Shown here one piece after another: positions 23,048 through 61,568 of a stretch of 64,000 nucleotides of DNA (within the stretch, counting starts at the first letter, position 1; each line of letters opens with the position of its first letter). Location: the NCBI RefSeq assembly GCF_036507355.1, contig NZ_AP027877.1. One strand, 5' to 3'. A model generated the notes under the pieces. It was not told the origin of the DNA and did not search any database. It saw only the letters and a program-made list of their open reading frames with translations. The position numbers and the translations under genes were made by a program. This stretch comes from Escherichia coli. GTDB lineage: Bacteria > Pseudomonadota > Gammaproteobacteria > Enterobacterales > Enterobacteriaceae.

Positions 23048-23232
23048 TTGTAGGCCGGATAAGGCGTTCACGCCGCATCCGGCGACAGGAGCCAAATGCC
23101 GGATGCAACGCTGGCGCGTTTTATCCGGCCTACAATGAGCTCAACATACTGATTTGTATGGTTTTGTAGGCCGAATAAGGCGTTCAAGCCGCATCCGGCG
23201 ACAGGAACCAAATGCCGGATGCGTCTCTGGTT
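23048..23232. repeat. cluster of REP (repetitive extragenic palindromic) units / BIME
   Basis: Four units of GCCGGATAAGGCGTTCACGCCGCATCCGGC-type palindromes in alternating orientation between the convergent mglC and preA. Confidence 0.8.
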
Positions 23233-24468
23233 TTACAACGTTACCGGGTGTTCTTTCTCGCCTTTCTTAAACTTCACTTCCCCGAGCTCAATACAACCCA
23301 CCGGGCAGACGTGACCACAAAGCAGGCAACCAACACATTTCTCGGTATTACAATACGGTGTACGGGTTTTCTCGCTCCATTCCATCGCCTGGTGACCGCC
23401 GTCGTAACAGGAAATATAACAGCGTCCACAGCCAACACATTTATCAAGATTGATACGGGGATAGACAATATAACTGCGGTCTAAATCTTCCGCCGGGACA
23501 ATATTGTTATTCGCCAGACCTACCATCTCCTGCAACGAATCAAATCCCTGATCGGCGAGATAATGCGACAACCCGCTCGCCATATCTTCCACTATCCGAT
23601 AGCCGTACTGCATAATGCCGGTGGTGACCTGTAACGTTGCTGCGCCGAGCAATAAAAACTCCGCCGCATCCTCCCAGGTTTCAATGCCGCCGATACCGCT
23701 GATTGGGAAATCGCGCAGTTCTGGATGGGTGCGCATTTGCTGAATGAAGCGCAGGGCGATCGGTTTTACCGCTTTACCGGAATATCCGGAAATACTCGAT
23801 TTTCCGTTAACGATCGGCATACCGATTTTCTGATTAAGATCGATATTGGTGATGGATTTAACGGTGTTAATCGCCGCAATGCCATCTGCGCCGCCGCGCT
23901 TCGCCGCCAGCGCCACTTCGCACATATCACCGATATTCGGCGTCATCTTCGCCAGCATTGGCAGCGTGGAACCCCGTTTCACTGCCCGACAATATTTTTC
24001 TACTAGCTCCGGGCTTTGCCCGACATCGCTACCCATCGCATGAGAAGTCATTTGCGGACAGGAGAAGTTACACTCGATCATATCCGCGCCAGCTTCTTGC
24101 ACCAGGCGCGCCAGCTCCTCCCATTGCTGCTCATTTTCCCCCATGATCGAAGCGATCAATACTTTGTCCGGGTAATCTTCCTTCAGCCGACGCAGGGCGG
24201 CCAGATTCTCTTCCAACGGATGTTCAGCAATCTGCTCCATATTTTTGAAGCCGATAAAACCGGTATCTTCTTTCACCAGATGATCAAAACGCGGCGAGAC
24301 TTCGTTGGCGATAAAAAAGCCGATCGTTTTAAACACCACACCGCCCCAACCTGTGTCGTAGGCTTTGGCACACATCTCATAGCAGTTGCCTACCGGCGAA
24401 GAAGAGAGGCAGAATGGGTTGGGAAACTTCACGCCGCAAAAAGTAATCGAAAGATCTTTCGTTAACAT
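23233..24468 (-). CDS. preA: NAD-dependent dihydropyrimidine dehydrogenase subunit PreA (4Fe-4S, FMN)
   Basis: ORF 23233..24474 trimmed to [10 protein letters not shown]... (411 aa); C-terminal double ferredoxin CxxCxxCxxxCP motifs. Confidence 0.9.
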
Positions 24469-25700
24469 GAGCAAGCTCCCTCTAAATAGTAATGAATCGC
24501 CTCGGCGGCTTCTTTCCCGGTTTTCACGGCATAGACCACGGTTTTGTCACCCTCAACAATATCGCCAGCAGCAAAGACTTGCGGATCGCGGGTCTGATAA
24601 TTTTGTGTTTTGATGGTGTTACGCTGCGGCTCTAACTCCGCAAAGGCATCCAGTCTGGCATGCTGACCGACGGCGAGAATAATTTTATCTGCCACCATCG
24701 TCAGTTCGCCCGATAACCGTACATGCTTAAACGTGACTTTATTGCCTTCCACGGCTACTGGCGTGAATCCATCGATGATCGAAACGCCCAGCTCCCGGGC
24801 GCTGGCAAACTCTTTTTCGCTTGCCGGAAACTCATCTAACTCTTCACGCGCTACGCAAGTTACCGCCTGACAGCCGAGAACTTTCAGCGTGCTGGCTACG
24901 TCCATCGCGACATCACCGCCGCCGATAATTAATGCGCTTTGTGGAATGCTGATATCGCCTTGCACCTGTCGTGCACGTTGCAGGAAGTCCACGGCAATCT
25001 CAACGTCGCTATGCTCAAACAGCGGTAGCCCGGAACCGCTTGATAACCCCACGGTGACCAGTACCGCGCGGTTTTCCGCTTTCAGTTGCTCCAGGGTTAG
25101 TGTTTTACCGACTTCGTTGTTGCACTTAATGGTCACGCCCATTTTTTCAATACGGGCGATCTCTGCATCCAGTACTGATTGCGGTAACCGGAATTGCGGA
25201 ATGCCGTTACGCAACCAGCCACCGGGTTGTGCTTCTTTCTCATAGATCGTGACGTCATAACCCTGGTTTGTCAGTGTCACACTGGCCTGCAATCCGGCAG
25301 GACCTGCGCCAATAATCGCGACTTTGCCGAGCGTTTTAGTACCGGGCTGATAAATTTCCATCCCGGTTTGTTGTTCAAAATCAGTAACAAAACGCTGTAA
25401 GCGGCCGATATCAATGGGAGCATCAACACCGGCACGGGTACAACCGCTTTGGCATAATTTCTCCGTCGGGCACACTCTGGCACAAACGGCACCGAGGGCA
25501 TTATTTTCGCGAATTGTCTCGGCAGCGCCTTTAAAATTACGAAAGTAGATTGAGCGAATAAATTTCCCCGGATCGGTCTGTGCCGGGCAAGCCTGACTAC
25601 AGGGAGCGTCGTGACATAATAAACAGCGAGAGGCTTCTTTAATCGCCAGTAACGGCGTAAAAGCCGGAGTGAGTTCATCCAGATAATTTTGTTGCGGCAT
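24462..25700 (-). CDS. preT: NAD-dependent dihydropyrimidine dehydrogenase subunit PreT
   Basis: ORF 24462..25754 trimmed to [10 protein letters not shown]... (412 aa); FAD/NAD dinucleotide-binding GAGPAG motif; overlaps preA start. Confidence 0.9.
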
Positions 25701-25743
25701 GTGATCTTCCTTAATGCTATGAGTAATTAAGGCGAACGCTAAT

Positions 25744-25869
25744 ATACTCGTCATACTTCAAGTTGCATGTGCTGCGTCTGCGTTCGCTCACCCCAGTCAC
25801 TTACTTATGTAAGCTCCTGGGGACTCACTCACTTGTCGCCTTCCTGCAACTCGAATTATTTAGAGTATA
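25744..25869. repeat. ERIC / IRU intergenic repeat element (~126 bp)
   Basis: Contains the ERIC core in reverse orientation (CGCTCACCCCAGTCACTTACTTATGTAAGCTCCTGGGGA) flanked by TATACTCG...GAGTATA terminal inverted repeats. Confidence 0.8.
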
Positions 25870-26017
25870 AATATTGCGTGCTGATATTAAGGCTATGCGC
25901 GTGGGGAAATTTAAACTGTGAAAGGATTCACAAATAGCTGCGGTTCAGAATGTTATATCCGCAGCTTATTGAGTGAAGTAATAATTATTCTCAATAATTA
26001 ACAGAAAAGAGAAAATA

Positions 26018-28013
<1,996 letters not shown>

Positions 28014-40927: not shown

Positions 40928-41056
40928 AGCATTTCCTCACGATTCTCCTTTGACGATCGCACTTTTTGCTCGTTATGATGGCGTCGCTAGCCTCAGTAAA
41001 TCCTTACTCCGGCGGTGCGCAACCCGTGCGCGTGAACCACTATCTGAATGCTCATC

Positions 41057-61484: not shown

Positions 61485-61568
61485 TAAAAAAACCTGCTGG
61501 TGAGGCAGGTTCTTTTATTTACTATTTTCAGGCCTAACACCACAGCCTGTGCAACATCGTGTTCCAAC
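61485..61568 (-). ncRNA. orzO: candidate OrzO-like antitoxin sRNA of the zor/orz type I TA locus
   Basis: Minus-strand sigma70 promoter (-35 TTGCAA 61603..61598, 17-nt spacer, -10 TATAAT 61580..61575) precedes a region whose transcript would be complementary to the zorO 5' UTR (direct DNA repeat 61549..61573 vs 61715..61739), ending at a minus-strand hairpin plus U-tract (stem 61492..61510, A-run 61485..61491 on plus strand). Boundaries approximate. Confidence 0.45.

Follow-up and report, generated by a model that had tools for sequence, protein, structure and literature searches.

This locus raises the question of what an ERIC repeat does when it lies directly ahead of preT. The window, by which we mean the whole stretch of 64,000 nucleotides of Escherichia coli DNA that was analysed, contains the gene order cdd-sanA-yeiS-preT-preA, all on the minus strand, and the gene names were confirmed from the RefSeq annotation of matching loci. 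The last two genes form preTA, a uracil and 5-fluorouracil reductase operon. The earlier note on this DNA had proposed that a full-length ERIC copy occupies positions 25744-25869, between yeiS and the preT start and inside the likely preTA promoter or 5' untranslated region, and that its stable hairpin could affect mRNA stability or translation. We consider that the element is probably a passenger repeat that is transcribed together with preTA and changes its expression modestly at most, and we give this reading a probability of about 0.6.

The region 25743-25869 is a complete ERIC/IRU element of 127 bp, including a TA dinucleotide at each end. The body of 123 bp (25745-25867, minus strand) is supported by primer sites, paralogue identity and a sub-threshold match to the V_AS5 model. 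On the preT-proximal side it is bordered by a duplicated TA at 25743-25744, which was placed by the comparison of filled with empty alleles and by paralogue alignment, and on the yeiS-proximal side by a duplicated TA at 25868-25869, which was placed by the comparison of filled with empty alleles; the coordinates proposed earlier were thus right to within 1 nt. The two terminal inverted repeat arms, each of 25 nt (25743-25767 and 25845-25869), are 80% complementary to each other. Between them, a conserved central core (25785-25828; like the arms and the TAs, listed without a strand) holds the ERIC2 and ERIC1R primer sites and an inner inverted repeat at 25791-25822 with arms of 14 nt. The ERIC-PCR primer sequences (Versalovic et al. 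1991) identify the core of the element. ERIC2 has a single match at 25785-25806 with no mismatch and ERIC1R has a single match at 25807-25828 with one mismatch, and neither gave any match in 100 shuffles. The canonical published orientation of the ERIC runs along the minus strand here, which is the preT sense. In this sense the RNA of the element folds at -53.5 kcal/mol (z = -7.8), compared with -39.7 kcal/mol (z = -5.4) for the plus strand, and none of 200 shuffles was as good in either case. The predicted structure is one long imperfect hairpin whose ends meet at the base, and its longest unbroken helix is 11 bp.

ERIC, IRU or RU-1 elements are a family of repeats that lie between genes in enterobacteria (Sharples & Lloyd 1990; Hulton et al. 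1991; reviews: PMC2229807, PMC3184786), and TA target duplication has been described for them (PMC2229807 Table 1; PMC3184786). In every structural feature that could be tested, the element at 25743-25869 agrees with this family. Like other members it is 127 bp long, forms an imperfect palindrome bounded by terminal repeats, ends in TA on either side with duplication of the target, has the conserved core and a stable RNA hairpin, exists in many dispersed copies and lies between genes, where it is probably transcribed. The element is a canonical ERIC (IRU/RU-1) miniature inverted-repeat element without coding capacity, and its length, inverted repeats, primer sites, TA duplication and paralogues confirm that the copy is complete. 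There is no structural difference from the family, and the only additions are its position, at about +14 of a putative CRP-dependent promoter, and its presence/absence polymorphism. In itself, the element is of an already known kind, belongs to a textbook repeat family and adds nothing new.

Of 5426 complete E. coli genomes, all but one contain copies of the family (5425), at 2 to 20 places each with a median of 11. The closest K-12 paralogue found lies in the pgk-fbaA spacer and is 98.4% identical over 126 of 127 nt, with the same orientation relative to transcription, and in O157 and ST131 a paralogue lies in the ybhJ-ybhI spacer. The paralogues in these two spacers are 96-98.4% identical to the window copy end to end (127 nt), and the similarity ends at the terminal TA. 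The pgk-fbaA copy resembles the yeiS-preT copy in that it lies between co-oriented genes. However, it is intercistronic, between two genes of one operon, whereas the yeiS-preT copy lies in a putative 5' leader, preceded by a terminator-like hairpin and by what is probably a promoter of its own operon.

A chance palindrome or a repeat of the REP/BIME type, instead of an ERIC, is ruled out for practical purposes by the primer-site matches, for which the chance expectation is zero, and by the end-to-end identity of 96-98% to dispersed copies in the 5425 genomes. The sole REP-type Rfam match in the window, naRNA4, is elsewhere, at 23053-23130, and among the features of the element we found none that favours a non-ERIC identity. 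Rfam contains no ERIC family, and at gathering thresholds no Rfam family matched at the ERIC locus. Under permissive thresholds the only match at the locus was to RF02818 V_AS5 (Vibrio antisense RNA AS5), which scored 46.7 bits against a gathering score of 96. The full length of this covariance model (positions 1-129) was aligned to 25747-25870 on the minus strand with E = 2e-9 to 4e-9. The hairpin architecture and the core sequence are common to both, but the score is far under the gathering score, which points to family-level homology of ERIC with a Vibrio relative and not to membership. ERIC relatives have been reported in vibrios, and the V_AS5 match is consistent with that.

As the earlier note had suggested, the preT 5' region was compared across strains with and without the element, using the spacer alleles of 5426 complete E. 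coli genomes other than the window's own. Empty alleles read GCTAAA-TA-AATATTGCG, and filled alleles have TA on both sides of a 123-bp insert and are 125 bp longer. Read on the opposite strand, the empty allele is AATATT-TA-TTTAGCG and the filled allele is AATATT-TA-(123 bp)-TA-TTTAGCG. In the empty strains O157:H7 Xuzhou21 and ST131 EC958, the flanks are 99.5-100% identical to those in the window. Because filled and empty alleles have identical flanks, we concluded that the ERIC entered the yeiS-preT spacer by a TA-duplicating insertion. The comparison revealed a polymorphic locus, at which the ERIC is present in 2197 of the 5426 genomes (~40%). Among these filled alleles, 232 have a known type of internal insert, of 78 bp here, and one has an unrelated 109-bp MITE 5 bp away. 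About 1470 of the 5426 genomes are empty with a K-12-type spacer that is ~10% diverged. The element is absent at this locus in K-12, O157:H7 and ST131, and the site is also empty in the best 24-kb matches of the window, which are 99.1-99.3% identical and include O55:H7 and O157:H7. Wilson and Sharp reportedly gave 14 non-K-12 ERIC sites in 2006, and the site may be listed there; in the searchable literature we found no mention of an ERIC at yeiS-preT. One further sequence hypothesis, which predicts GCAATATTTAGCG, was rejected, the observed sequence being GCAATATTTATTTAGCG.

The length variants known for the ERIC family include an internal insert of ~70 bp at a fixed site and internal deletions. 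Both kinds of length variant are seen at this locus, as the 78-bp internal insert and as internal deletions. In total, the states of the locus comprise the empty site, the 127-bp element, the form with the 78-bp insert, and centrally deleted, degenerate and truncated forms. This range of tolerated states argues against a strong constraint on the insert at this locus.

In terms of gene context, the preT coding sequence (24462-25700, minus strand, start ATG at 25698-25700, according to the RefSeq annotation of matching loci) is separated by a spacer of 317 bp from the upstream gene yeiS (26018-26257, minus strand, stop at 26018). The ERIC lies 43 nt upstream of the preT ATG (25700), on the preT sense strand. 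In the preT sense, the order is the yeiS stop, a terminator-like hairpin, a CRP site, TAGCCT, AATATT, the ERIC, a hairpin at the Shine-Dalgarno (SD) sequence and the preT ATG. The terminator-like hairpin after yeiS (25936-25966, minus strand) has an 8-bp GC-rich stem and a 15-nt loop, and a simple terminator scan left it uncalled because its loop is longer than 8 nt. Together with a second small hairpin over the CRP site, it lies in a 61-nt segment (25915-25975, minus strand) that folds at -19.5 kcal/mol with z = -4.8. In E. albertii, its stem has undergone a two-sided compensatory change from GCUGCGG/CCGCAGC to GCUGUGG/CCACAGC. The small hairpin overlapping the preT SD (CCUUAAU-N10-AUUAAGG, 25709-25732, minus strand) has arms that are invariant across genera.

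The CRP site, TGTGAATCCTTTCACA, at 25917-25932 on the minus strand (centre 25924.5), is a perfect TGTGA-N6-TCACA, and it is supported by its sequence, by a published record (PMC3105977) and by conservation. In the study of Shimada 2011, genomic SELEX recovered yeiT as one of the CRP targets already known, and the site is listed as an activator of yeiTA (PMC3105977 Tables S3/S4). Scanning species-representative genomes with YeiS gave 19 loci, from Escherichia, Citrobacter, a Raoultella-labelled MAG and S. arizonae, and the CRP site is perfect in 19 of the 19. Empty alleles were aligned from 16 of these 19 loci together with two empty E. coli alleles. A candidate -10 hexamer, TAGCCT (25890-25895, minus strand), keeps its sequence and its exact distance from the CRP site in all aligned loci, with TAGGCT in S. 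arizonae, and the stretch from this box to the SD hairpin varies between genera in sequence and in length, up to ~25 nt. An alternative -10-like hexamer, AATATT (25870-25875, minus strand), abuts the insertion point and fits a CRP position of -57.5; its spacing from the CRP site is not kept in Citrobacter.

Because TAGCCT stands at an invariant distance from the CRP site, and exactly at -12 to -7 if CRP is centred at -41.5, we favour a class II CRP-dependent promoter for preTA, with a start that we infer to be near 25881-25883. A RegulonDB-derived position of -57.5 is given for the yeiTA CRP site (PMC3105977 Table S4), and it disagrees with the -41.5 architecture. A consensus promoter and terminator scan of 25600-26400 found no minus-strand promoter and no terminator at the element, and thus the promoter model depends on the CRP site on record and on what is conserved between genera. 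The sole start that a genome-wide study assigned to yeiT, in the empty-allele strain K-12, is weak, with 2 reads, and lies inside yeiS (Kim 2012, PMC3415461 Table S1). The supplementary data of Cappable-seq and SMRT-Cappable-seq, as available here, contain no entry near preT.

The element was inserted 55 bp downstream of the CRP-site centre, in a part of the leader that differs in length between genera. The insertion disrupts neither the CRP site nor the candidate -10 box nor the conserved SD hairpin. The ERIC would begin at about +14 by the favoured start, or at +1, on the duplicated TA, by the RegulonDB-derived -57.5. Because it is downstream of both the CRP site and TAGCCT, which are conserved in sequence and spacing, the element is almost certainly part of the preTA 5' leader, as judged from sequence. 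Its location between yeiS and preT agrees with the gene coordinates and with the RefSeq annotation of matching loci. That it lies inside the preTA promoter or leader region also held up, considering that it follows the CRP site of PMC3105977 and a TAGCCT box whose position is conserved in three genera; on the sequence evidence, it does not lie upstream of the promoter.

Considering this position, the ERIC would be transcribed with preTA and would lengthen the leader from ~58 to ~182 nt, and its RNA would fold autonomously into a long imperfect hairpin. Such a hairpin would alter the ribosome-binding site little, and would probably alter RNase E access little. By partition function, we folded the leaders of the different alleles, each beginning at the favoured start and including the first 33 nt of preT. 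The same self-contained ERIC hairpin was predicted in the 127-bp and the long-form leaders, and all alleles, filled or empty, were predicted to form the SD hairpin (25709-25732). The preT SD has a mean unpaired probability of 0.35 in the filled allele and 0.36 in the empty allele; the value is 0.35-0.36 across the filled, long-form and O157-type empty leaders and 0.32 in the K-12-type leader. For the preT AUG, the corresponding value is 0.47 in the filled, long-form and O157-type empty leaders, and 0.54 in the K-12-type leader. Occlusion of the preT ribosome-binding site by the hairpin was rejected on this basis, the predicted accessibility being identical with and without the element. The earlier suggestion of an effect on translation is thus not supported as far as a direct effect is concerned.

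A different route to an effect on translation is through an AUG carried by the ERIC itself (25752-25754, minus strand), which is in frame with preT in the window and would add 18 codons. The window has a 1-nt deletion just past the element, reading TTAGCG where other alleles have TTTAGCG, and because this deletion puts the AUG in frame with preT, an ORF of 430 aa (24462-25754) is open. The same AUG begins a uORF of 12 codons in the other filled alleles examined, where the frame is closed by a UAG 17 nt upstream of the preT AUG. If the AUG at 25754 were used, PreT would have an N-terminal extension of 18 residues in the window, and elsewhere the uORF would modulate preT translation. This is very unlikely. 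The AUG is part of the hairpin stem and lacks an SD at a suitable distance, and in all matching loci RefSeq annotates the conserved preT start. In addition, the in-frame state needs a 1-nt deletion that few filled alleles have: of 13 single-piece filled loci that were sampled, not one is identical to the window. We consider that the ERIC-borne AUG is probably not used. An altered promoter is likewise improbable, though less so. The insertion would then replace the initially transcribed sequence, or add -10-like hexamers that shift the start or add new ones. The architecture that suits this explanation has a RegulonDB-type start, CRP at -57.5 to -61.5 and AATATT as the -10 box, so that the element would lie between the -10 box and +1. 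In its favour, the tabulated -57.5 puts +1 on the duplicated TA (PMC3105977 Table S4), AATATT (25875-25870) abuts the insertion, and the junctions create TATACT (25869-25864) and, facing preT, TATATT (25746-25741), each a 5/6 match on the minus strand. However, the spacing of the AATATT-like box from CRP is unconserved across genera while that of TAGCCT, at -12 to -7 in the -41.5 architecture, is conserved. The consensus promoter scan gave no minus-strand site in the region, and on inspection the new hexamers are without usable -35 partners and out of helical phase with CRP.

A change in mRNA decay is an alternative that we regard as possible but doubtful. In this explanation the transcribed ERIC hairpin measurably changes the decay of preTA mRNA, so that filled and empty strains differ in PreTA level. 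The effect could be stabilising, as a structured 5'-proximal element, or destabilising, through an RNase E site in the terminal repeat or as a substrate of a double-strand-specific nuclease. On the one hand, the stability of the hairpin in the mRNA sense (-53.5 kcal/mol), the pairing kept between the diverged E. coli and E. albertii copies, and the placement of the closest K-12 paralogue, in the same orientation, inside the co-transcribed pgk-fbaA spacer are all in keeping with such an effect. The best precedent comes from Yersinia, where, as related in reviews of the work, ERICs change flanking transcript levels in an orientation-dependent manner that is attributed to RNase E (De Gregorio 2005 J Bacteriol 187:7945, via PMC2229807 and PMC10969869). 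The Yersinia elements are of the same family, with TA duplication and a hairpin that is co-transcribed, as its position would imply for the yeiS-preT copy as well. On the other hand, the mechanism as these reviews give it has the element adjoining or overlapping a stop codon, where ribosomes unmask an RNase E site (De Gregorio 2005, via PMC2229807, PMC10969869 and PMC3184786), and the model site lies in the right-hand repeat and needs the responsive orientation. The Yersinia ERICs so described sit near stop codons, whereas ribosomes would not reach the yeiS-preT copy: it begins 149 nt past the yeiS stop, beyond the terminator-like hairpin, and is untranslated. Blocking of RNase E scanning is weakened as a candidate, since scanning RNase E readily bypasses a simple or orthogonal stem-loop (PMC9943677), and the strong protection of the mRNA that the earlier note's suggestion on stability would imply is not expected. 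A protective 5'-terminal stem-loop is also unlikely, since ~13 unpaired nucleotides precede the hairpin under the favoured start, and with a longest uninterrupted helix of 11 bp the hairpin would be a poor substrate for RNase III. The Correia/NEMIS elements of Neisseria (PMC10969869) offer a further comparison. These are also small TA-flanked inverted-repeat MITEs that are polymorphic upstream of genes and transcribed as hairpins, and they alter, for example, mtrCDE expression. However, RNase III acts on Correia elements, which also contain IHF sites and working promoters, whereas the helices of the ERIC are short and interrupted here and no DNA motif is known for ERIC (PMC2229807 Table 1).

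The passenger reading is favoured because SD and AUG accessibility are unchanged, RNase E bypasses simple stem-loops, no intrinsic-terminator pattern was found after the ERIC hairpin in the scan of the minus strand, the Yersinia mechanism fits poorly and the locus tolerates a range of variants. The pairing conservation in E. albertii, the Yersinia precedent, the new -10-like hexamers at the junctions, the disagreement between -57.5 and -41.5 and the weak K-12 start inside yeiS speak against it.

The pairing conservation became apparent from other lineages. An ERIC is present at the same site and in the same orientation in E. albertii NBRC 107761, in the divergent strain E69 and in Escherichia sp. 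MOD1-EC7003; in E69 only a remnant of ~70 bp is kept, and the MOD1-EC7003 copy is of the E. coli-type long form and is centrally deleted. The site is empty in Citrobacter, Salmonella and several Escherichia species, and therefore empty is the state ancestral among enterobacteria. Identity to the window is only 77-79% for the E. albertii copy, compared with 88.6% for the flanks, and this copy has four derived changes in common with the E69 remnant. The consensus-like E. coli copy is either orthologous to this old copy of E. albertii and E69 or a second insertion at the same TA. Of the 127 positions, 28 differ in E. albertii (22% divergence), and yet none of the 41 predicted pairs of the window hairpin is broken: 31 are unchanged, 7 are changed on one side and 3 are compensatory. 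With 28 changes placed at random, 10.6 ± 2.2 pairs are broken, and in none of 20000 trials was every pair spared. Judging by these sequence comparisons, something preserves the pairing of the ERIC hairpin at this site, and this could mean function rather than neutrality. Candidates are selection for RNA or DNA structure, the requirements of mobile master copies if the insertions were independent, and arm-to-arm correction.

The practical value of the finding is in the location of the element, in the putative leader of an operon that inactivates 5-fluorouracil. The product of preTA is the bacterial dihydropyrimidine dehydrogenase, and a link has been reported between the gut abundance of preTA and the efficacy and toxicity of fluoropyrimidines (bioRxiv 10.1101/820084; PMC11185696). 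The 5-fluorouracil studies of preTA used K-12, which has the empty allele (bioRxiv 10.1101/820084; PMC11185696). In about 40% of sequenced E. coli the preTA leader would be longer by 125 to 203 structured nucleotides, which follow closely on the putative CRP-dependent promoter. The insertion could thus be a polymorphism, of natural origin, that regulates preTA in cis, such that the carriers, the ~40% with the element and among them the 232 with the long form, express the operon at another level than strains of the K-12 type, O157 and ST131. It is also conceivable that selection in Escherichia favours a structured element at this leader position, to which the much more diverged ERIC that E. albertii and E69 have at this site and the complete pairing despite 22% divergence point. 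We hold these two possibilities together to be unlikely, and put them forward tentatively. If expression were changed, the capacity of a strain to inactivate the drug would be misjudged from gene presence alone. The role of an ERIC hairpin in a 5' leader has been little tested in E. coli so far, and the natural allelic series at this locus, with the empty site, the 127-bp element, the long form, the deleted forms and one allele with a second MITE, is suited to this and permits a direct test.

In the T-run adjoining the ERIC element upstream of preT (window 25741-25742 region), we found one T/A fewer than in all other filled alleles examined, that is, yeiS-preT spacers carrying ERIC. Because the flank of the window lacks this T/A, an ERIC-borne AUG at 25754 is placed in frame with preT. 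The shortened flank appears to be rare, since none of the 13 sampled filled loci present in a single piece was identical to the window. For the surrounding 24 kb (window 20000-44000), no match of more than 99.3% identity was found among the complete E. coli genomes of the collection, and the nearest matches include O55:H7 and O157:H7. The lineage of the window may lie outside this collection, for example filed under Shigella.

The yeiS-preT spacer of E. coli itself exists in two deeply diverged versions, which are about 10% apart (window flanks 25870-25900 and 25701-25742, compared with L003, L012, and L015, the corresponding loci of other genomes). The differences are concentrated immediately 3' of the conserved TAGCCT box. 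The K-12 type spacer, found in approximately 1470 genomes, is almost the same as that in Escherichia sp. E1V33 and E. whittamii, and ERIC was observed only on the other version, the O157/ST131-type background.

ERIC copies also occupy the same TA-rich site in E. albertii (L014 1898-2020), strain E69 (L016 1891-1959), and Escherichia sp. MOD1-EC7003 (L011 1889-2061), and these copies differ widely in age. E. albertii and E69 carry degenerate or truncated copies with derived changes in common, and the copy of MOD1-EC7003 is of the E. coli type, with the 78-bp insert and a central deletion. On the one hand, the copies may descend from a single old insertion that was followed by losses. On the other hand, they may have arisen by repeated insertion, in which case the TA-rich site would be a hot spot.

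In the locus of E. coli HCP30S3_I2 (L004, approximately 1604-1716), we also observed a 109-bp MITE, absent from the window, that lies 5 bp from ERIC on the preT side. It has 17-bp terminal repeats (GGAAGGTGCGAATAAGT), which we take to be IS5-like, and a CTAA duplication. This MITE was found in just 33 of the 5426 genomes. As many as 31 copies of at least 99% identity occur within one genome. Copies lie on both chromosomes and plasmids, and the element looks recently active.

In the Rfam comparison, V_AS5 (RF02818), described by Rfam as a Vibrio antisense RNA, aligned over its full length to ERIC (window 25747-25870, minus strand) at 46.7 bits, below the gathering score of 96. This alignment suggests that V_AS5 was built on a Vibrio ERIC-like repeat. 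Elsewhere in the window, three matches exceeded the gathering score, namely naRNA4, a REP-derived nucleoid-associated RNA, just beyond preA (23053-23130, plus strand), the Peptidase-S11 leader motif (40972-41052, plus strand), and OrzO-P, which acts as the RNA antitoxin in a type I toxin-antitoxin pair (61486-61561, minus strand).

Two hairpins lie on the minus strand of the yeiS-preT spacer. A terminator-like hairpin with an 8-bp stem and a 15-nt loop lies 3' of yeiS (25936-25966) and adjoins the CRP site; a simple terminator scan made no call for it, and in E. albertii a compensatory change is found on both sides of the stem. The smaller hairpin, CCUUAAU-N10-AUUAAGG (25709-25732), lies over the Shine-Dalgarno sequence of preT, and its two arms are invariant across Escherichia, Citrobacter, and S. 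arizonae. The motif GCCTTAA is found again at the -10 box. The hairpin and this repeat could act in translational control or as a repeat bound by a protein.
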